Shown in pieces: positions 25,185 through 36,443 of a stretch of 64,000 nt of DNA (position 1 is its first letter; each line of letters opens with the position of its first letter). The DNA is from Promethearchaeota archaeon (GTDB lineage: Archaea; Asgardarchaeota; Lokiarchaeia; Sigyniarchaeales; SOKP01): positions 192,001 to 256,000 of the forward strand of contig JBHLOY010000003.1 in NCBI GenBank assembly GCA_048939995.1, read 5' to 3'. A program made the translations under genes and the position numbers. The notes under the pieces are model-generated. The model saw only the letters and a program-made list of their open reading frames with translations. It searched no databases and was not told the DNA's origin.

Positions 25185-26327
25185 CTATAAATTTGGGTTC
25201 TCAATCCAACCTTTATCTAACTTTTCTTTAGTATATAATATTGATGCACCTATCCATCCCATATTTTCTCTGCCAGAAGCCGCTATAACTTTAATTTTGT
25301 CTTTTATTTTCTCAGAGAAGTATTTTTGTAATTCAAATTGAATTCTCTTATCTAATCCAGTGATCAAACTTCCACCTCCTGATAAAATAATATTCCCCAA
25401 TAAATCTTCCCAATTTTCTCTTTCCCAGGTCTTAATTACTTTTGAAATGGATTCTGGAAGACCTATATAATCTACATGAGCAAGTTTTGGATTGAATAGG
25501 GGTTCAGATAATAGAAACCGTTCTAAATTTATTTTTAAATCAGATCCATCAGGAAGATCTATTACTCTATCATATTTCGTTACTCCCCCTTTCACTTTTT
25601 TTAGCTCTTCTTGAGGATTTAGCACACATAATGACAATTTTTCTTTAATTTCTTTTGCAATTGATTTATCAATATAGACATTTTTTGATGTGCCAATACG
25701 GGTTAAAATTAAATTCAAAAAGTAACTTGTCAAATCTTTACCGGCAATAGGAAAAACATCTCGGGCCATTATATTGGTGAAACCATGAAATATTGTAGAT
25801 ATATAAGTGTTAGATTCTCCCATACTCACAATAACCCCACTAGCTTTTTGAAGTGTGGAAAGAATAGCTTGACTTTCATGCAAAAAAAGGAGGTATGGAA
25901 ATTTTAATGAATTAAAAAATAAGTGTTGTAATTTCGATTTCTCTAAATCTGACATGAAAAAAGGAGATATGATAATTAAAGGGTGCTTAAATTGATCTTC
26001 TTTATTGATTTTTAGCTGTTTATAATAATGTAAAAAGAACTTAAGCAAAATGTTAAAATTGTGTTCTTTTTTAAATTCATGAATTTTTAGAATATTTTGA
26101 TATTTCAGTGCCTGGTGTCCTACCAAATGAGGTGTCTGATCATTCTGAAAAAATAATTCTTCTAGGCCCTCAATGACATCAGAAGAGAATAAATAATCAG
26201 AAACGTCAACATATACACTTGGAGCAATAATATCTGGAAAATCTTCACCTGCCCATCCTATTCTTGAATTTGCGGTCCCAATATCAAGGATTAAAGGATT
26301 AGTCTGATCTCTTAATTTCGATGCCAT
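25185..26327 (-). CDS. Divergent actin / actin-related protein (Asgard)
   Basis: LILDIGTANSRIGWAGEDFP, AGKDLTSY, EIKEKL, LPDG..ERFLLSEPLFNP, NIILSGGGS, WIGASIL. Confidence 0.92.
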   Translation of the reverse strand: MASKLRDQTNPLILDIGTANSRIGWAGEDFPDIIAPSVYVDVSDYLFSSDVIEGLEELFFQNDQTPHLVGHQALKYQNILKIHEFKKEHNFNILLKFFLHYYKQLKINKEDQFKHPLIIISPFFMSDLEKSKLQHLFFNSLKFPYLLFLHESQAILSTLQKASGVIVSMGESNTYISTIFHGFTNIMARDVFPIAGKDLTSYFLNLILTRIGTSKNVYIDKSIAKEIKEKLSLCVLNPQEELKKVKGGVTKYDRVIDLPDGSDLKINLERFLLSEPLFNPKLAHVDYIGLPESISKVIKTWERENWEDLLGNIILSGGGSLITGLDKRIQFELQKYFSEKIKDKIKVIAASGRENMGWIGASILYTKEKLDKGWIENPNL

Positions 26328-27718: not shown

Positions 27719-28108
27719 TTATTCTTGAATTGCTTTTAAATGAGCTTTTGCATTGAGTGGTAATAAAGGTGCACATGCCATGAGTTTACTAACATCTCCT
27801 TCAACAACGTATGATCCAGACATAGTTGCCTGAATTGGGTCAGATTCTCCCGAATTAACTTTCTTAATCGTTTCAAAGTTTGTCTTATGAATAATTATTG
27901 GAACTTTAGTCCCCGAATATTGACCCATTCCCCAATCCATCTTACTTTTATTAATGAATTGCCAGTAACTCATCTCTGGTTTATCAGTAATTTTATATTG
28001 AAATACCAATGGTGCAACTGGTTCTAATAGTTGTGCTAAACCTTGTAACTCATTATAGGCTTTCATGAAACGTGAAAGATATTGTTTCCATTCTTCTTTT
28101 GTCTCCAA
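27719..28108 (-). CDS. SCP2 sterol/lipid-binding domain protein
   Basis: VFQYKI..TNFETIKKVNSGESDPIQATMSGSYVVEGDVSKLM; likely TTG start at 28108 after GGAGGTGA (track ORF extends to 28261). Confidence 0.8.
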   Translation of the reverse strand: METKEEWKQYLSRFMKAYNELQGLAQLLEPVAPLVFQYKITDKPEMSYWQFINKSKMDWGMGQYSGTKVPIIIHKTNFETIKKVNSGESDPIQATMSGSYVVEGDVSKLMACAPLLPLNAKAHLKAIQE

Positions 28109-28443
28109 ATTTATTTTCACCTCCTTTATTTTTTGATTCTTAATTTTTGGTTTGTTAAAATTGATATGATTAATTATAATGCCTTTTTCACTGACTTTTT
28201 GAGTCATTAGTTCTATATCATATGTTGGAGATCTTATATCCTCTACTTCTTCATTACTCATGCAATTTAAAGGATCTATTGCTTTCTCTATTAAGAAATA
28301 TAATATATCCTATCCGAAGGGTTGAGGAACCAATTGAAGTGTAATTGAAATGATCAAATTTGTTATTATTGTAATCTCTAGTAGTTATAAACTTCATATT
28401 TATTGATTTCCCTTGATTATTTTAATTTTTAAATAGAGATAAT

Positions 28444-29616
28444 CTACATATAAGAATCAAGGCCCGCTTTACAACCCATTCCTAAGAAATCTACCATCGC
28501 GCCGTTATAGTCATTTTCGATTTTATAGTAAAGACCTTTATTTGTAAATGTAACTCCCCAAATGAACTTACTTGATTTGCTTTGAAGTGGAGTTTTCTCA
28601 ACAAAATCTTTCATTAAGGGATGTAAATGCACTGGAACCTCCTTTGGGTCATCACACGCCATCCCAAAGCACAAACGTTCTAACTCTTCTGAAGTCCAAT
28701 TAAAAGTAAAATTTAGATGGACTGCTTTACGACAACTTTCCATTATTTCGCTAGAGGCGGGCTTGAGTCCTAAGTCCTCAACAAGTGCAATAGTGCTTTC
28801 GTATAGGGATCTAGCAGGCTGCTTAAGCATAAAGTAAATATTGGTGGTATTATGCAAGAAATCAAATGCAAAAAGACTAAATGCTGTTAAACCATGTTTA
28901 TCAAAGTATTCTCTATAATTTTTCATACTTTCTGGGATTGACTTCATCGTATAAATTGGATCTATGGAACCTGGTACTATGAATGGCCAAATCTTTGATA
29001 AACCACTTGTTGCATCTATATCCACCCCATAACCCATTATATCAAATGTGTTTATAACCTCTACTATCATATCATGGATAGGATGTCCATTCTTCTCGAT
29101 TAATTTTTTATTTACAGCTGTAGTATAAGGATCTGGATTATGAGGGATAAAGAATTCAACATATCGTACGGCTACATCTCTTTTTTCGGCTGGTTTTGTT
29201 GTTGTTCTCATCGATATTGGTGCCCCTCTAAAGAATTTTTCATAAGCATTTAATGTCCTCCAAATAGCTTCTTCATTAAATGCTACTCTAGTAAAATTAC
29301 AAATAATTGAAATATCCTTTACCATCTGAGTGAGATCTGTATTGCATTTAAAATTAGATTGTACCTTTGGTAGGTATTTATCATAATTTATTCCAAGCTT
29401 TTGTAGATCTCCTATCATAGTTGGTTGAAAAGCTGGAGGGGTTACTTCAAACAAAGCTACTACTAAATCAATCTCAGCTACTTCACTTCCATTGCGTTCT
29501 ATACATTTTTTTTCCGCAGCTTCAAAAAGTGCTGGTCTTACAGCTGGTCTCACCATTTCTGGGATTCCTAAAATTACCTTCTCAAAAAGGCTTTTTACTT
29601 CTGGTTGCCATTTCAT
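28444..29616 (-). CDS. ABBA-family aromatic prenyltransferase (NphB/CloQ-like) with N-terminal DUF2621-like module
   Basis: YGVDIDATSGLSKIWPF, FAFDFLHNTTNIYF, FTFNWTSEELERLCFG, YYKIENDY follow the PT-barrel strand motifs of NphB/CloQ. Confidence 0.8.
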   Translation of the reverse strand: MKWQPEVKSLFEKVILGIPEMVRPAVRPALFEAAEKKCIERNGSEVAEIDLVVALFEVTPPAFQPTMIGDLQKLGINYDKYLPKVQSNFKCNTDLTQMVKDISIICNFTRVAFNEEAIWRTLNAYEKFFRGAPISMRTTTKPAEKRDVAVRYVEFFIPHNPDPYTTAVNKKLIEKNGHPIHDMIVEVINTFDIMGYGVDIDATSGLSKIWPFIVPGSIDPIYTMKSIPESMKNYREYFDKHGLTAFSLFAFDFLHNTTNIYFMLKQPARSLYESTIALVEDLGLKPASSEIMESCRKAVHLNFTFNWTSEELERLCFGMACDDPKEVPVHLHPLMKDFVEKTPLQSKSSKFIWGVTFTNKGLYYKIENDYNGAMVDFLGMGCKAGLDSYM

Positions 29617-29645
29617 TTTATTTTAACCTCTTCTATTTTAATTAA

Positions 29646-31061
29646 TTAATTTTGATATTTTGCAAATTGAATTTGGCTCAATTCAGCAAACCCTTCTGGA
29701 TTATTGAAACCAAGACCTGGCATCATCCATCTTGGATTTTTCTCACCATATTGCCTCAATAGGTGGAATAAGTCTGTCTCTTTAATTTGTGGTGATATAT
29801 AAAACCTAGGTTTTAGTAAATTCTCATTCTGTTGTATTATTCCCTCTTCTTCAGCAATACGTTGAAGTGGAGTATGGGGGTAGATTCTCATCCCTATAAA
29901 TATGATAACATCTCCATCACCTTGCCATAGATTTCTCTTATAGTTTTCTAAAGTTTCTAACCGATCTAACGAGATTCTAATACTTTTAAGAGTCTCTCCT
30001 GGGCCTCCAACAATAACATGTATCAATTGTTCGATTCCTAAATCAAAGCACTTTTTTGAAGTAAGAATCGCATCATCTGAAGTTCTTTCTTTATTCATAT
30101 TTTTTAACATCTCTTCAGAAAGAGATTCTATACCCGTAGCAAAGTGAATAGCACCACTTTCTCTCATCATCGGCATTAAATCAAGAAATTTTCTACTAGG
30201 AACGTAATTTGCTCCCCAGTTAATATCAATTTTTTGTTTAATAATCTCTTGACATGTTTCCTTTACGTGATCATAATTTAAGTTGAATAAACTATCTACA
30301 ATAAAAATATTTTTAATTCCATAATTGTTTATTATTATATCTAATTCTTCTGCAATGTTTTTCGGAGATCGATAACGAACATTGGACCCTTCTATGTATT
30401 TATAACTACAATAAATACAATTCATTGGGCAACCGCGTTTAGTTTGAATATTAGCCCAAATCGGACCCGATTTTTTCATAGGATCAATAAGGTATGCATC
30501 ATTATCTATTAAGGCCCTTAATGGAAAAGGAAGTTCATTTAAATTTTCAACTCGCCATGGTGGACTTTGGTGGTATTTACCCGTATTGCTTAGAAAGCAT
30601 ACACCGCGTTCAATTTTTTTGGGATTCTCATGATTTTTAATCTTTTCTAATATTTCAGCAAATACAAGTTCACCATCCCCAACAACGCCTATATCGTGCT
30701 TTAAATCACGTAAAATCTCCTCCGAAAAAATAGAAAACCCTGCTCCACCTAAAATTATTGGAATATGGGGCTCAACTAGTTGTTTAAGGTATTGAAGAAT
30801 ATTTTTAACGGGTAGATAAAAAAATAGATTCCCAGGATAAGTAGTTGAATCGACATTTCTGATCGAAAAACCTATTACGTGAGGATTAAAGTCATATATT
30901 GCTTTCGAAATATCTTGTTTATAATTATTACTTAAAGTCAAATCTAGTAACTTCACTTCATGACCTCGATTCATTAAGAAAGAAGCTAAATATGCTTCTC
31001 CTATTGGAGGTACCATCACATGGACTATCTCTCGACTTCCAGAAATTATTAACACTCTCAC
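29646..31061 (-). CDS. B12-binding radical SAM protein (class B methyltransferase-like)
   Basis: PPIGEAYLAS..GHEVKLLDL, IGFSIRNVD, ILGGAG, VGDGE, QTKRGCPMNCIYC, GIESLS, GGPGET. Confidence 0.9.
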   Translation of the reverse strand: MRVLIISGSREIVHVMVPPIGEAYLASFLMNRGHEVKLLDLTLSNNYKQDISKAIYDFNPHVIGFSIRNVDSTTYPGNLFFYLPVKNILQYLKQLVEPHIPIILGGAGFSIFSEEILRDLKHDIGVVGDGELVFAEILEKIKNHENPKKIERGVCFLSNTGKYHQSPPWRVENLNELPFPLRALIDNDAYLIDPMKKSGPIWANIQTKRGCPMNCIYCSYKYIEGSNVRYRSPKNIAEELDIIINNYGIKNIFIVDSLFNLNYDHVKETCQEIIKQKIDINWGANYVPSRKFLDLMPMMRESGAIHFATGIESLSEEMLKNMNKERTSDDAILTSKKCFDLGIEQLIHVIVGGPGETLKSIRISLDRLETLENYKRNLWQGDGDVIIFIGMRIYPHTPLQRIAEEEGIIQQNENLLKPRFYISPQIKETDLFHLLRQYGEKNPRWMMPGLGFNNPEGFAELSQIQFAKYQN

Positions 31062-31090
31062 AGTTTTTCTACCCCAATTAATCTCTAATG

Positions 31091-32488
31091 TTATTTTTCA
31101 AGTAATTCAATTTTTTTAGCCACATTAACTTCATGTTTGTGATCATTTTCATGCCAGCAGAATGGAAATGAGCCAAAGAAATCTCCAGTAATATATTCTG
31201 CAGTTACTCGACAACCACCACCGCAATATTTGAGGTGATGACAATCTGCACATTTTCCTCTAATCTTTTTTCTATCACGAATATCCTTATATAGTTGGGA
31301 ATTTAATACATCTTCAAAATTATCCTTTAGGGCATTTCCTAACGTTAAAGAGGTAGGGTATCCCGCAGGATAAATAGTTCCATCTATTCCAATACCCATC
31401 ATTGTTCTACAAGCTAAACACCCTACCCCCCATTCAATTGCAGCCAATTCCTTGTCATCTTGTGGTTGTTCCATAAACGGAACCATATCATAAATTTCAT
31501 AGGCAGGTAGTGTGCCAGCTTTACCTTTTCTTATCGTTTCAATTGCATGCTTATATTTAAAATTATACATTTTTTTATATTCTTCTGTACTAAGCCCTAT
31601 TTCATTCCAAAATTGAGCTGCTCGATTTTGTTTAACTACACATCTAAAATATGGTTGTGAACCCCATCTCTCAGATAATTCTTTAAGTTCTTCTAATTCA
31701 TCAATATTTTGTTTCATGACTGTTATTGATGAACATACAAAAATCCCATACTTTAAGCAAAGATCTATAGCCTTTTTGGCATATACTAAGGAATTTGAGA
31801 ATCCTCGTATGTGATCATTCTTTTCTGGGTCTGCACTGTCAAAACTAACAAATATGTGACTAATATTATTAACTTTGCACATTTTAGCAAATTTTTCATT
31901 AAACTGAACTCCATTGGTGATAAGAGCATGAATATAGTCTTTTTCTTTGCAAAATCTCATGATCTCACCGATATCTTTTCGCAAGGTAGGTTCACCACCA
32001 AACCATACGAAACATGCATGTCTTCCTTGTTTTCTTAAGCCCATTTCAACATTATCTATTATCTGACACCATTGGTCCTTGGATAGTTCGGATCGTGGTG
32101 CAAGATCATCAGCAGCACAATGAATACATCTTTGGTTGCACTTATCTGTAAGATACATTGCAAAATGTATGTTTCCAGGATGGAATCCTCTTTCTAGTTT
32201 TTGCCAGGAGACTTTGAGGCGATCTTTTATATCTTTCAGTTCTATATAACGCTCAACATCAATGCCTAATTTAGTTAAATCTTCAACCATCACGGGTTTA
32301 AAGGCTTTAGGGATAATATCAAAAATCCCTAAGATTACATCTGGATCATTAATATAAGCACCGTTTCTTTCAAGACACCTTTTTTCTGCAGCCTCTACAA
32401 TTAAGGGTTCGACTGAAGGTCTAAACCCCTGGGGCATCTGTTCTACTATTCGATTAAATAATAGTTGTGTTTCTTTTTCCCATTCCAT
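31091..32488 (-). CDS. Radical SAM/SPASM protein with N-terminal DUF2621-like module (paralogue A)
   Basis: CNQRCIHC, FGGEPTLR, TNG, GCLAC, CADCHHLKYCGGGCR..C. Confidence 0.9.
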   Translation of the reverse strand: MEWEKETQLLFNRIVEQMPQGFRPSVEPLIVEAAEKRCLERNGAYINDPDVILGIFDIIPKAFKPVMVEDLTKLGIDVERYIELKDIKDRLKVSWQKLERGFHPGNIHFAMYLTDKCNQRCIHCAADDLAPRSELSKDQWCQIIDNVEMGLRKQGRHACFVWFGGEPTLRKDIGEIMRFCKEKDYIHALITNGVQFNEKFAKMCKVNNISHIFVSFDSADPEKNDHIRGFSNSLVYAKKAIDLCLKYGIFVCSSITVMKQNIDELEELKELSERWGSQPYFRCVVKQNRAAQFWNEIGLSTEEYKKMYNFKYKHAIETIRKGKAGTLPAYEIYDMVPFMEQPQDDKELAAIEWGVGCLACRTMMGIGIDGTIYPAGYPTSLTLGNALKDNFEDVLNSQLYKDIRDRKKIRGKCADCHHLKYCGGGCRVTAEYITGDFFGSFPFCWHENDHKHEVNVAKKIELLEK

Positions 32489-32500
32489 TAAATTACACCC

Positions 32501-33868
32501 TCAAGAGCAACCTTTATGATTGTGATCATCATTATGCCAACAAAATGGGAGTGCTGCCAAGAAATCACCTGTTTCATTTTCAGCATGAACTCTACATCCA
32601 CCTCCACATAAATCGAGATGATGACATGTGGAACATTTTCCTTTTATTTTTCTGTCTCTAATAGCTTTAAACATTTCACTTTCCATAATTTCATTGAAAT
32701 CTTGTTTGAAAACATTTCCTAAAGTTAATTTAGAGGGATAATCACATGGAAAAAAATCTCCATTGACATCAATACCTGAAACAGAACGACATGCTTGACA
32801 TCCTACGCCCCACTCTAATGCGGTTCGTTCTTCATCAGTACGAGGGCATTCCATAAAAGGGACCATATCATAAGTATATACTTTATTCAAGAAAGACGCT
32901 TCACCTTTTCTAATAGCCTCAACTGCATGCTTATATTTGAACTCGTAAAATTGGCGATATTCCTCATAACTTAATCCAATTTCATCCCAATTTTTATCCG
33001 CTGTACGTTGTTTAATTACCGCTCTAAAATAAGGTATAGCACCTAAAGTTTCTAATTTCTTTTTAATGTCCTCTAATTCATCAAAATTTTCTTTCTGAAC
33101 TGTTGCTGTACAAATTACCAAATGTCCATAATCTGTTGCTAATTTTATGGCTTTCTCAGCTGCCTCACCTGCTTTTGGAACCCCTCGAATTTTCGCTGCT
33201 CGTTCGGGATAAACACTATCATAACTGATAAATACATGATGCATCTTTGCCTCAGCACATAGTTTAGCTAAATCTTCTGTAAATAGTATTCCATTGGTAG
33301 AAATGGCTTGGTAATATCCTTTTTCACCGCAATATTTTATTAAATCTCCAAGATCTTTACGTAGAGTTGGTTCTCCACCAAACCATATATAACACCCCTT
33401 TCGACCTTGTTTTCTCAACGTTTGCTCCACATTTTCTATAATCTTTATCCACTCCTCTGTGGAAAATTCTGGACGATGTTCATACAATCCAGCAGCACAG
33501 TGTAGGCATTTTTGATTGCATCGATCAGTTAAATACATAGTAAAATGGTAGACTCCAGGAGCCCATGCTCCCCCAATTTCGTCCCATGTACGTGCATACT
33601 TTTTCCTGATCTCTGATAGTTTTACATATCTTCCTGTATCAATTCCTAATTTCTTTAAATCCTCGATTACTGTCGGTTGAAATGCTTCTGGCGTTATTTC
33701 AAACAGCGCTGATAATAAATCATCCCGACTTACAAATCCAGAGTTCCTAAGTATTGCAGTTTTTTCAGCAGCTTCCCGTAACATTGGAGCAACAGATAAA
33801 CGAAAAGCCTCAGGAACTTGTTCTGTGATCTGTTTATATAGATTTTCTATTTCTTTTGTCCAATCCAA
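32501..33868 (-). CDS. Radical SAM/SPASM protein with N-terminal DUF2621-like module (paralogue B)
   Basis: CNQKCLHC, FGGEPTLR, GCQAC..FPC, CSTCHHLDLCGGGCR..C. Confidence 0.9.
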   Translation of the reverse strand: MDWTKEIENLYKQITEQVPEAFRLSVAPMLREAAEKTAILRNSGFVSRDDLLSALFEITPEAFQPTVIEDLKKLGIDTGRYVKLSEIRKKYARTWDEIGGAWAPGVYHFTMYLTDRCNQKCLHCAAGLYEHRPEFSTEEWIKIIENVEQTLRKQGRKGCYIWFGGEPTLRKDLGDLIKYCGEKGYYQAISTNGILFTEDLAKLCAEAKMHHVFISYDSVYPERAAKIRGVPKAGEAAEKAIKLATDYGHLVICTATVQKENFDELEDIKKKLETLGAIPYFRAVIKQRTADKNWDEIGLSYEEYRQFYEFKYKHAVEAIRKGEASFLNKVYTYDMVPFMECPRTDEERTALEWGVGCQACRSVSGIDVNGDFFPCDYPSKLTLGNVFKQDFNEIMESEMFKAIRDRKIKGKCSTCHHLDLCGGGCRVHAENETGDFLAALPFCWHNDDHNHKGCS

Positions 33869-33989
33869 CTTTTTTACCTCTTTTTGTTTTTAAAATTATT
33901 TAATATATTTAAAAAAGATTTGAATTTAGTCTTAAAAGTCAACATAATATCAGAAAAGGTGTTATAATTAATTATAATAAAATCACCGC

Positions 33990-35399
33990 CTATTTTTTTA
34001 AAAGACCATGACGTTTTAGTCCATCCCTCATATCTGCTTGAAATGCTGCAGGAGTTCCTTCGATAAATGCTTCAATAATGTCTTCATTTTCAATCTCCAT
34101 AGAAGCCCTCTTTTTTGCCTTATCTTCTGCTAATGATGAAATTGCCATCCTTGCCATAGATTGGAATTGAGGGGGTGTTAATTTTATTAGCTCGTTAAAG
34201 ATTTTAATAGTTTCTGGGTTCCACGAAAGACCTGCTGTTTTCTTTTCTTCTTTAGGTTTAGCAGGTTCAACACCAAATTCACGACTTGTCAATATCTCTT
34301 CCATATATCTTTGTATAGATTGGACATATTTAGTCGATTCGTCTTTATCTAAATATACTGCCTTTTTCGCCCATTCTTCGCAGTAATTACATTCATCACA
34401 CATCGCTAAACAATTTTGTTTCTTAAAGAATTCAATAAAACCGTTTAACTTAGTATTATCGATTATTAGTTTCGATATTGACTCTTTTCTGATGGTTTGC
34501 CTAAATCCTGCAACTGGATCTTTTTCCTGCATACCTCCAAACGAAATTGAGAACCCTTCAATAATATCTATGAGATTTCCCTCGTATTTTCGGGATGAAA
34601 ATGCTTTTACCGATCTGATAATCCATGAAGTGGGCATCATACGTCCTGCGATTTTAAAGCTATGAATTCCAATCGCCTCGTAGTGAGATAAATCTTCGGG
34701 ACGAACCCATCTACATTTTATCACCTCAGTAGGATTCGAGAATTTGATACTACTACAGTTTAAAATGCATGTGTCAATATAACGGCATTCAAACTGTTGA
34801 TAAGTCTGAGAAGCGTGTCCCAAGATATTGTAATGGTATAGTCTAAACGGACATTGGTATAAACATCCATCTGTTAAGAGCAAAACGATTTTGCATTTTA
34901 CTGCTTTTTGTATTTTTTCTAAAGACTTGAAATCTCGATTTATCATTACATCAGGGGTAATCTCATCAGCACCAAGCGATTCATAAAATTTTGCACGATT
35001 CACGCTATTAACATGAGAAACAGTTGACACACGCACTTTGAGTTTAGGGAACTGCTCCTTAATTAGTTGTATTAATAAAGGAATCGACACAATAACATTA
35101 TCAGCACCAATATCACTAATCCATTGCAAATATTTGAGCAGTTCTTTATGATAGTACGGATCATATTCCATATTATTCATACAGGGAGCGTTCAAAGCGT
35201 AAGAAAACTTCATTTTATTCTTATGCACTTTACTAATATATTCTATAATCTCTTCTTCATTGACTTCTTTTAATAAGAAGAATGGGCGACCACCTCCTAC
35301 TATCGAATGAGGAGCTGTGCCGTAGAGATCGACAACGGGAAATTTCGCCAATGCGTCTATAAGATTTGTATCCCAATTCGTTGCTACATAAAAATTAAT
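33990..35399 (-). CDS. Peptidase U32 family Fe-S protein (UbiU/UbiV/TrhP-like hydroxylase) with C-terminal DUF2621-like module
   Basis: FSYALNAPC, RVSTVSHV, INRDF, GCLYQC..H..C..C, WVRPEDL, FKIAGR; frame is open upstream of the track start 35351 to ATT 35399 (MNFYVATNWD) behind AGGTGA. Confidence 0.85.
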   Translation of the reverse strand: MNFYVATNWDTNLIDALAKFPVVDLYGTAPHSIVGGGRPFFLLKEVNEEEIIEYISKVHKNKMKFSYALNAPCMNNMEYDPYYHKELLKYLQWISDIGADNVIVSIPLLIQLIKEQFPKLKVRVSTVSHVNSVNRAKFYESLGADEITPDVMINRDFKSLEKIQKAVKCKIVLLLTDGCLYQCPFRLYHYNILGHASQTYQQFECRYIDTCILNCSSIKFSNPTEVIKCRWVRPEDLSHYEAIGIHSFKIAGRMMPTSWIIRSVKAFSSRKYEGNLIDIIEGFSISFGGMQEKDPVAGFRQTIRKESISKLIIDNTKLNGFIEFFKKQNCLAMCDECNYCEEWAKKAVYLDKDESTKYVQSIQRYMEEILTSREFGVEPAKPKEEKKTAGLSWNPETIKIFNELIKLTPPQFQSMARMAISSLAEDKAKKRASMEIENEDIIEAFIEGTPAAFQADMRDGLKRHGLLKK

Positions 35400-35435
35400 T
35401 CTTTTTCACCTTTATTAGAGGTTTAAATATTTTTT

Positions 35436-35606
35436 TTAGATTTTTTTATTTAATTTTTTTTGAAATATTGATTTTAAATTACCTTTTAATAGTGAAATCT
35501 CGTCCCATTGTATAATAAGCGGGATTTGGACAATCATTTTTCCGCCTATTGGCGGAACCATTACATGATGTATTTCTCGACTCCCATTAATTATTAACAC
35601 ACGCAT
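35436..35606 (-). pseudogene. Internally deleted relic of a second B12-radical SAM paralogue
   Basis: Translates MRVLIINGSREIHHVMVPPIG, versus MRVLIISGSREIVHVMVPPIG at 31061; similarity then stops abruptly. Confidence 0.75.
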
Positions 35607-35747: not shown

Positions 35748-36443
35748 TTAATTCTTAAACCCCCTCCCGTTGAAAATATTTGTTAGGATTAGATTATTAT
35801 AATTTTTTAAAAAAGATTTGACACGCCTAATAATTTTCAGGAATAGAATGATGGTAGAATTTTCAAATAATTTATTACTTTTATTTAAAGTAAATGAGAA
35901 TAATATATTATAGATTTTATCTTTAAAATGATAATGCGAATTATAAAGATATTCATGGTTTTTAACGTTAAATAGATTTTCGATCTCAAAAGCGTGATTA
36001 ATTAGTGGATACTTATTGATCTCATAAAAATTGAATAGTTTCTCTGCATCTTGAGCTAAATAGTAAGTTTCTTCAGATCCAGAAGCCCCTAGATACGAAT
36101 ACATTAAAATTGGATTAAATTCATCTAAACATACTCTTTTAAAATAGTGATAAATACTGCTTTGAATGTAACCAATAATATTAATTAAAATAAAGATATC
36201 AATTAAGTGCCCTAGACTAAATTGAAAACTGCTAAATGGTTCGGGCAGATACCATAGTAGATTTAAATTTGGCAAAATTGGAATAAAGAGGGAACTTCCT
36301 GTCCCTATATAATCATTCAAGAAAGAAGATATGCTTGAAATATCTCTTATAAATAAATAAAACAATGCGATTGGAATACATGAAAAAATAAAAAGTAAAA
36401 TAATGATTACTCTTAATTTATTAGATCTCTTATCATCCTGCAC
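35748..36443 (-). CDS. Hypothetical membrane protein (possibly degenerate)
   Basis: 231-aa ORF with two or three hydrophobic segments, GTG start after GGAG. Confidence 0.45.
   Translation of the reverse strand: MQDDKRSNKLRVIIILLFIFSCIPIALFYLFIRDISSISSFLNDYIGTGSSLFIPILPNLNLLWYLPEPFSSFQFSLGHLIDIFILINIIGYIQSSIYHYFKRVCLDEFNPILMYSYLGASGSEETYYLAQDAEKLFNFYEINKYPLINHAFEIENLFNVKNHEYLYNSHYHFKDKIYNILFSFTLNKSNKLFENSTIILFLKIIRRVKSFLKNYNNLILTNIFNGRGFKN

Follow-up and report, generated by a model that had tools for sequence, protein, structure and literature searches.

We describe a six-gene cluster in a 64,000-nucleotide stretch of DNA from a Promethearchaeota archaeon of the class Lokiarchaeia (contig JBHLOY010000003.1, positions 192,001 to 256,000; hereafter the window). 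The genes encode a U32 Fe-S protein, two radical SAM/SPASM paralogues (SPASM-2 and SPASM-1), a B12-dependent radical SAM enzyme (B12-rSAM), an ABBA-type prenyltransferase and an SCP2 lipid-binding protein. With moderate confidence, we propose that they form an accessory tailoring line that works without O2 and adds prenyl, hydroxyl and methyl groups to an aromatic lipophile, besides modifying it by radical chemistry, and that a module of about 80 residues shared by four of the enzymes organises them. The evidence observed directly comprises the protein families, the fold, the conserved residues, synteny, co-occurrence and gene fusions. The cluster is real and conserved, and every enzyme family in it is already known. 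The initial annotation of this DNA had considered a pathway of such composition undescribed, and the searchable literature indeed holds nothing relevant; no paper was found that combines Asgard with 'aromatic prenyltransferase', most subscription papers lying outside the search. The shared module, a wider lipid island and the bacterial polyketide contexts of homologous genes are points absent from that annotation.

The ABBA prenyltransferase

Pfam families were called by their gathering cut-offs and NCBIfam families by their curated cut-offs. The ABBA protein, PRENYLTRANSFERASE (28444-29616), matches the family PTase_Orf2 (PF11468) with 181.6 bits against a cut-off of 22 (E 3e-53). Its structure model has ten strands, a pLDDT of 93.5 and a pTM of 0.91. 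In a Foldseek search, the model aligned best to AmbP3, FamD1, AmbP1 and EpzP, at TM 0.84-0.92 normalised by target and an rmsd of about 2.2, followed by NphB and CloQ; every top solved relative of the barrel is an aromatic prenyltransferase. Judged by this model, the enzyme is a member of the PTase_Orf2 family with a predicted ten-stranded antiparallel PT-barrel, which upholds the original family assignment.

Six residues, R151, K208, N259, Y261, R314 and K365, are invariant across 36 ABBA homologues and align to the diphosphate-binding motifs of NphB, EpzP and AmbP1. We take NphB K119, N173, R228 and K284 to be the equivalents of K208, N259, R314 and K365; the position of NphB Y216 is occupied by N302. 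Position 151 is an arginine in EpzP and the AmbP enzymes too, and this suggests that catalysis does not require Mg. The protein thus resembles the known PTase_Orf2 enzymes (AmbP1/AmbP3/FamD1, EpzP, NphB and CloQ) in its PT-barrel (TM about 0.8-0.9 by target), its basic diphosphate-binding residues and, at 19-28% identity, its sequence, and is about equally far from the indole and the phenazine enzymes. It differs from them in carrying an extra 84-residue module, in its archaeal host and in its partners, which are anaerobic radical enzymes rather than O2-dependent oxygenases. Its closest relatives, up to 78% identical, are found mostly in Promethearchaeota genomes. An ABBA gene labelled Odinarchaeota (L030:10001-10942) is 44% identical and has neither the module nor pathway neighbours.

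Conservation of the gene set in Asgard archaea

Inspection of the open reading frames (ORFs), together with Pfam matches above cut-off, bears out a co-oriented string of six minus-strand genes in the order and of the families first assigned. The annotated ORFs are separated by 121 bp (U32/SPASM-2), then by 12, 29 and 29 bp, which agrees with the 12-29 bp given earlier for the four middle genes, and by 182 bp (ABBA/SCP2). On comparative evidence this is not a chance assembly, as 27 Asgard loci share the gene set. The usual order is F5 - F4 - SPASM-2 - SPASM-1 - B12 - ABBA - SCP2 (or a second U32 pair) - U32, where F4 is a membrane gene and F5 a second B12-radical SAM enzyme (nearest to TIGR04190, under its cut-off). 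In the window the order is rearranged and U32 is displaced to the front. Across the 27 loci, U32 with the module is present in 24, SPASM in 21, B12 in 20, F4 in 19 and F5 in 16. An SCP2 domain, alone or fused, occurs in 25, the two exceptions being cut contigs; its fusion partners are ABBA (536 residues), a SPASM-type radical SAM enzyme (about 503), U32-module (about 680) and the module alone. F4 usually lies directly before SPASM-2. About 110 of its N-terminal residues are conserved and hydrophobic, the tail is variable, and the window copy matches the family at 36% identity over 106 residues (E 1e-10); F4 had no match in Pfam, NCBIfam or Atlas.

The module was found in 47 of 400 Asgard genomes, all of the window's class. 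Among 161 genomes of the class, ABBA is present in 32, about a fifth (13 of the 40 high-quality genomes), and the cluster's U32 in 44, comprising 31 of the 32 genomes with ABBA and 13 of the 129 without. The genes are therefore co-conserved, a point on which the initial annotation had asked for a synteny check. Gene content is combinatorial: some loci lack B12, others ABBA or a SPASM gene. None of 14 genomes of one family (f3) had a cluster match, including single-contig genomes of 4.4, 6.0 and 4.3 Mb. Such patchy, combinatorial content is easier to reconcile with optional tailoring than with a respiratory pathway that is essential. Two loci (L007:15954-20355 and L065:7926-12321) hold a third, divergent SPASM-module paralogue with SCP2 and a pair of FAD-binding/CCG Fe-S oxidoreductase genes.

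The shared module

ABBA, SPASM-1 and SPASM-2 begin with ~82 residues that are homologous to one another and to the final ~78 of U32, with pairwise identities of 26-49% and E values of 4.6e-23 to 1.9e-6. The module is thus on four of the six cluster enzymes; B12-rSAM and SCP2 lack it. A profile search returned 277 representatives at E <= 0.001. Many are free-standing proteins of 80-100 residues. In others the module is fused to ABBA, at its N- or C-terminus, or to U32, SPASM, a methyltransferase, a protein resembling HpaB or a 2Fe-2S domain. Outside this search, it was also seen on a HemN-like radical SAM enzyme. In the window's own genome, a stand-alone copy follows F5 at a position where a close relative (G262) has a full U32-module gene; by this comparison, the copy is probably the remnant of a U32 gene.

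The module model consists of four helices (pLDDT 90.8). The window copies score 16-22 bits against DUF2621 (PF11084), under the Pfam cut-off of 27.7, and are also under the cut-off for PCP_red (PF08369), the tail of ChlB/BchB. The model matches DUF2621/PCP_red clusters in Atlas at TM 0.84-0.93 and 2L09/2KRU at VIA Z 5.5-6.1. With a high match in shape and a weak one in sequence, the module appears to be a distant relative of DUF2621/PCP_red, from which it differs in that here it is attached, N- or C-terminally, to no fewer than three unrelated enzyme folds within a single pathway. Among solved structures there was no clear match, the best (Z 8.2) being AAA+ lids and other common helical bundles, a result that does not demonstrate a new fold. 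No paper with the term DUF2621 was found in the same searchable literature.

The module alignment contains no conserved catalytic residue or carrier serine. ABBA requires no electrons, so electron-donor docking alone is unlikely to be the module's function; a role as a tag for a metabolon or a carrier would fit better. A predicted complex of two module copies scored 0.01, which counts neither for nor against pairing, and a tree of the module has too few columns to order events.

The U32 protein

The U32 protein matches Peptidase_U32 at 57.3 bits (cut-off 22.4), well only at model positions 2-64. Its cysteines, numbered from the TTG start, are C57, C163-X3-C167-X27-C195-X3-C199 and C314-X3-C318-X2-C321-X2-C324. 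The characterised hydroxylases carry the motifs CX6CX16CX38C (UbiU), CXnCX12CX3C (UbiV) or CX6CX15CX3/4C (PMC6747719). The window protein has enough cysteines for one cluster, differs from these motifs in spacing and fails them. Most U32 subfamilies are uncharacterised, and prephenate is the oxygen donor of UbiU/V (PMC10990095). Of the earlier comparison with UbiU/UbiV, the U32 domain stands; the protein lacks the UbiU cysteine motif, and there is a single copy here. By analogy, the protein is probably a prephenate-dependent hydroxylase that works like UbiU/V without being one of them.

The window and the ubiquinone system UbiT/UbiU/UbiV (PMC6747719, PMC10990095) have in common a U32 Fe-S protein, an SCP2 lipid carrier and available prephenate. 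Some relatives of the window go further: 12 of the 27 loci add a second U32 pair, a 383-residue U32 and a U32-module-SCP2 fusion, which resembles UbiV plus UbiU-UbiT. In contrast to UbiU/UbiV, the window has one U32 of the module-bearing subfamily, with its own cysteine spacing, an additional C-terminal four-cysteine motif and the module. ABBA and radical SAM enzymes stand where the ubiquinone system uses UbiA and UbiE/UbiG, and, unlike in that system, no 4-hydroxybenzoate route is shown. The other two U32 genes of the genome are canonical and unlinked to the cluster.

Translation of this U32 most likely begins at a non-canonical ATT (codon 35397-35399) preceded by a GGTGA site, to judge from its homologues in loci L001-L040, where about 22 of 28 starts are ATT, ATA, ATC or GTT, nearly all behind a GGTG-type site. 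ABBA and SPASM genes, unlike U32, mostly start with ATG. The unusual start may be a conserved means of translational damping.

The radical SAM enzymes

SPASM-1 and SPASM-2 are 51% identical. SPASM-2 has a CxxxCxxC motif at 117 and the full set of eight auxiliary cysteines (357, 360, 375, 412, 415, 421, 425 and 443). SPASM-1 has seven, with PAG in place of the PCD of SPASM-2; at the missing position, most Lokiarchaeial orthologues have A or T and a few have C. This loss hints, from the alignment, that the role of SPASM-1 differs from that of SPASM-2. The pair scores at most 139.4 against AhbD (NCBIfam cut-off 500), 124.6 against AhbC (650) and 118.3 against NirJ (515). Demethylation or decarboxylation in the manner of these enzymes, as originally suggested, therefore has no specific support, and we rejected a role in haem biosynthesis (Ahb/Nir). 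Tetraether synthesis of the Tes type was likewise rejected (59.8 against a cut-off of 450). SPASM-2 had no match among the plasmids searched.

B12-rSAM contains B12-binding and Radical_SAM domains above the Pfam cut-offs and an invariant CxxxCxxC motif (C211, C215 and C218). By its domains it is a class B B12-dependent radical SAM enzyme and probably a C-methyltransferase. Its best NCBIfam match is TIGR04072 (rSAM_ladder_B12), a ladderane-island lipid family against which the initial annotation had proposed to compare it. The score, 278.8 bits, falls short of the cut-off of 360, so membership is not supported. TIGR04072 is nonetheless the top-scoring family, and the lipid-related context is similar; unlike that family, B12-rSAM has no acyl carrier protein (ACP) or ketosynthase neighbours. 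It is 33-35% identical to enzymes in the bacterial polyketide/SCP2 clusters L054 and L050.

Bacterial and metagenomic relatives

In a metagenome locus (L053, 48% GC), ABBA, the module and SPASM-1 form a single chain of 762 residues. Its neighbours are an orthologue of SPASM-2 (59%), three genes for U32-module proteins, one for a HemN-like radical SAM enzyme and methyltransferase genes. This chain is direct fusion evidence that ABBA and SPASM act in one pathway. U32-module genes also lie inside type II polyketide clusters of Gorillibacterium sp. CAU 1737 (L051:1500-15788) and of L054 (42-21449), a cluster that has a Lachnospiraceae member. Both clusters encode a ketosynthase with the active cysteine, a partner without it (the chain-length factor), ACP and cyclases; L054 additionally has a HemN-rSAM-module protein and a B12 homologue. 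In L050, a protein composed of U32, module, three SCP2 domains and module is encoded beside cyclases and a B12 homologue. A high-GC bacterial locus (L048:7420-13425) carries LuxE, LuxC and a LuxC-module-SPASM fusion. Taken together, the contexts in L053, L051/L054, L050 and L048 point to aromatic, lipophilic substrates under anaerobic chemistry. An aromatic, lipophilic target, as first proposed, is thus strengthened by the polyketide contexts and by the SCP2 fusions.

The U32 of the Asgard cluster belongs to one subfamily with those of L051/L054 (30-35% identical) and bears the same module; the cluster's B12-rSAM has a relative in L054 (33%). In contrast to these loci, cluster and genome have no ketosynthase, chain-length factor, ACP or cyclase and have ABBA, SPASM and SCP2 instead. 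ABBA was not found in the L050 and L051 genomes, where no control matched either. In the Firmicutes clusters L051/L054, U32-module, HemN-like and other radical SAM enzymes replace oxygenases; HemN-like enzymes of the CoeI type methylate anthraquinones (PMC9714029). A further locus (L058:2442-11996) combines U32-module with B12-radical SAM enzymes, Fe-S genes of the DUF2284 and DUF362 types and an enzyme that, by eye, resembles EhpF/phenylacetate-CoA ligase but matches no HMM.

Substrate supply and the lipid island

The genome, 98% complete, encodes chorismate synthase and chorismate mutase. Prephenate would therefore be available to the U32 protein, a point in favour of the interpretation first given. 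Chorismate synthase is present in 151 of the 161 class genomes and is uninformative as a co-occurrence test. Chorismate-binding enzymes (PF00425; MenF/TrpE/PhzE type) and MqnA/D (PF02621) were not found, with controls matched and PhzA/B and PhzF not searched; nor were LuxC or a convincing ketosynthase. On these results the genome is unlikely to make rings of the menaquinone, futalosine, phenazine or polyketide type, and the menaquinone/futalosine pathway was rejected. The simplest candidate for the acceptor would be a compound of the tyrosine/hydroxyphenylpyruvate type, or a scavenged one.

The genes recurrently flanking the cluster encode a CDP-alcohol phosphatidyltransferase (10 loci), a LuxE-like protein (8) and GT2 (7). 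The transferase is nearest to archaetidylinositol-phosphate synthase (inositol-phosphate-synthase-like), under the cut-off. In this genome the island genes lie together on contig C13, away from the cluster; in other loci the two are often adjacent. Class-wide, strong co-occurrence links F5 orthologues (60 of 161 genomes), the CDP-alcohol transferase (64) and the gene resembling LuxE (47), the last two of which are found in 30-40% of the class. In genomes with ABBA the counts are 31 of 32 for F5 (22% of the others), 27 of 32 for the transferase (29%) and 24 of 32 for the LuxE-like gene (18%); the genomes are related and not independent, and these counts describe a pattern, with no p-value. The association suggests that the cluster decorates or feeds the product of the lipid island.

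Gene boundaries

Coordinates are collected in the table. The initial annotation had ended the cluster at 35606, which is not the U32 start but the start of a B12-rSAM remnant. The remnant shares 19 of 21 residues with B12-rSAM (E 2e-10), with 82% DNA identity over 56 nt, and a close relative (L001) keeps two full B12 genes and two U32 genes. On these alignments it is a truncated duplicate of the B12-rSAM 5' end, a putative rearrangement scar. SCP2 (25.7 bits against a Pfam cut-off of 21.3) most likely starts at GTG 28120, which gives 133 residues, as in its homologues, and widens the ABBA/SCP2 gap to about 323 bp. A scan of the window for promoters and terminators gave chance-level results with a bacterial model unsuited to the archaeal host. 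An actin-like gene (25185-26327, minus strand) adjoins the cluster, in a conserved block with an 860-residue helical protein; it is an ordinary Asgard signature region.

Table. Positions of the cluster genes, module copies and related features. Numbers refer to the window unless a locus is named.
Feature	Coordinates	Strand	Assignment or remark
U32	33990..35399 (first canonical start TTG 35351)	-	Pfam Peptidase_U32; shared module at C-terminus
SPASM-2 (radical SAM/SPASM paralogue 2)	32501..33868	-	Pfam Radical_SAM + SPASM; N-terminal module
SPASM-1 (radical SAM/SPASM paralogue 1)	31091..32488	-	Pfam Radical_SAM + SPASM; N-terminal module
B12-rSAM	29646..31061	-	Pfam B12-binding + Radical_SAM; no module
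ABBA prenyltransferase	28444..29616	-	PTase_Orf2; module residues 1-84, predicted PT-barrel residues ~92-380
SCP2 lipid-binding protein	27719..28120 (longest ORF from 28261)	-	Pfam SCP2
F4 membrane gene	35748..36443	-	Upstream, beyond the cluster as initially annotated
B12-rSAM remnant ORF	35439..35606	-	First 21 codons copy the N-terminus of 29646-31061
Module copies	29365..29616 (ABBA), 32237-32488 (SPASM-1), 33617-33868 (SPASM-2), 33996-34235 (U32)	-	Pairwise homology
Stand-alone 83-residue module after F5	L028:8534-10295 (genome contig C13:271533-273294)		Module 64% identical to U32 tail
Lipid island	L055:8158-17527 (genome contig C13:74148-83526)		CDP-alcohol transferase, three GT2, LuxE-like, radical SAM, hydrolase, acetyltransferase, deacetylase-like gene

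A proposed pathway and its alternatives

From these observations we infer the reactions, their order, the substrate, the product and the role of the module as follows. In a first step, the soluble ABBA enzyme would prenylate an electron-rich aromatic acceptor with a short chain (C5-C15), probably independently of Mg2+. In the simplest case, this acceptor would be shikimate-derived, of the 4-hydroxyphenylpyruvate/tyrosine type, or it may be an aromatic acid activated by the LuxE-like enzyme. The U32 Fe-S protein would then hydroxylate, with oxygen from prephenate, and the B12-radical SAM enzyme would C-methylate. SPASM-1 and SPASM-2 would carry out two different radical C-H steps, and SCP2 would hold the greasy intermediates. 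As a metabolon tag, the module may hold the four enzymes that bear it close to one another or tether them to a shared carrier. The pathway's product would then probably enter, or be attached to, a phospho- or glycolipid of the co-occurring island (F5, CDP-alcohol transferase, GT2 and LuxE-like genes).

Several observations weigh against this proposal. The cluster has no ring-forming gene, and the genome has no chorismate-binding enzyme, MqnA/D, LuxC or convincing ketosynthase. The cysteine pattern of U32 is unlike that of the characterised hydroxylases. Isolated ABBA-module genes occur in bacteria without pathway neighbours, and in 13 genomes U32-module occurs without any ABBA, so the U32 protein need not act on a prenylated substrate. 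For the same lack of a ring-forming gene, and with gene content varying between genomes and partner genes lying elsewhere, the complete line that was first suggested is not supported.

The enzymes might instead remodel a non-aromatic archaeal or bacterial-type membrane lipid by methylation, hydroxylation and cross-linking of chains or head groups, with ABBA repurposed for O-prenylation or another reaction. The nesting within an island of CDP-alcohol transferase, GT2 and LuxE-like genes is consistent with this possibility, as are the lipid-linked TIGR04072 as best match of B12-rSAM and the LuxE-LuxC genes beside SPASM-module (L048) and U32-module (L057). We nevertheless consider it unlikely: the fold of the barrel and its basic residues are still those of aromatic prenyltransferases, homologous U32-module enzymes co-occur with aromatic polyketide synthases, and the SPASM pair is far from Tes.

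Quite unlikely, in our assessment, is a respiratory, quinone-like membrane electron carrier, with ABBA replacing a UbiA enzyme. U32 with SCP2 mirrors UbiU/V with UbiT (PMC6747719), the second U32 pair of some loci extends the parallel, and a search of the genome found no ring-forming route of the menaquinone or futalosine type. The gene content is combinatorial, however, and the distribution is patchy: the occurrence of ABBA in only 13 of 40 high-quality genomes and the lack of a match in all 14 genomes of family f3 weaken the membrane redox carrier originally envisaged. Four UbiA-family genes are present elsewhere in the genome. Characterised ABBA enzymes, moreover, take C5-C15 donors, which are too short for a classic membrane carrier.

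We also considered a system that modifies ribosomally synthesised peptides (RiPPs) or proteins, in which the module would serve to bind a leader and the substrate would be either a peptide or F4. RiPP clusters commonly contain a SPASM pair, a B12-rSAM and a prenyltransferase, and a shared N-terminal domain recalls RiPP recognition elements. Yet no conserved small ORF was common to more than three of 28 loci (427 small ORFs), no conserved peptidase or exporter was seen, the module models as all-helical, unlike a PqqD-type element, the SCP2 domains indicate lipid, and the cluster enzymes score far under the cut-offs of all RiPP-maturase models in NCBIfam. On the missing precursor, the failed maturase models and the helical module we rejected a RiPP cluster, and the wider reading is very unlikely. 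Least probable is a scavenging or detoxifying set that re-tailors aromatics or quinones from sediment or syntrophic partners; the lack of a ring-forming gene, the patchy distribution and the isolated bacterial ABBA-module genes would suit it, but no transporter is conserved beside the cluster in the 27 loci, and co-occurrence with lipid-synthesis genes fits biosynthesis better.

Implications

Beyond the tailoring line proposed here, we entertain tentatively a broader possibility. The module may be a general, undescribed docking device of anaerobic aromatic-tailoring enzymes in archaea and bacteria, found on ABBA, U32, SPASM and HemN-like radical SAM proteins and on methyltransferases. With its help, the Asgard cluster may produce prenyl-aromatic membrane lipids or redox carriers of a new class, which the island would link to a phospholipid or glycolipid backbone.

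Almost nothing is known of the specialised small molecules and redox lipids of Asgard archaea, and the cluster offers a soluble, easily expressed entry enzyme. If the proposed activity is correct, this divergent U32 subfamily would extend prephenate-dependent hydroxylation beyond ubiquinone and RNA. Because a broad range of anaerobic tailoring clusters bear the module, those for type II polyketides in Firmicutes among them, it provides a handle for genome mining; it may also represent a new way to organise a pathway.

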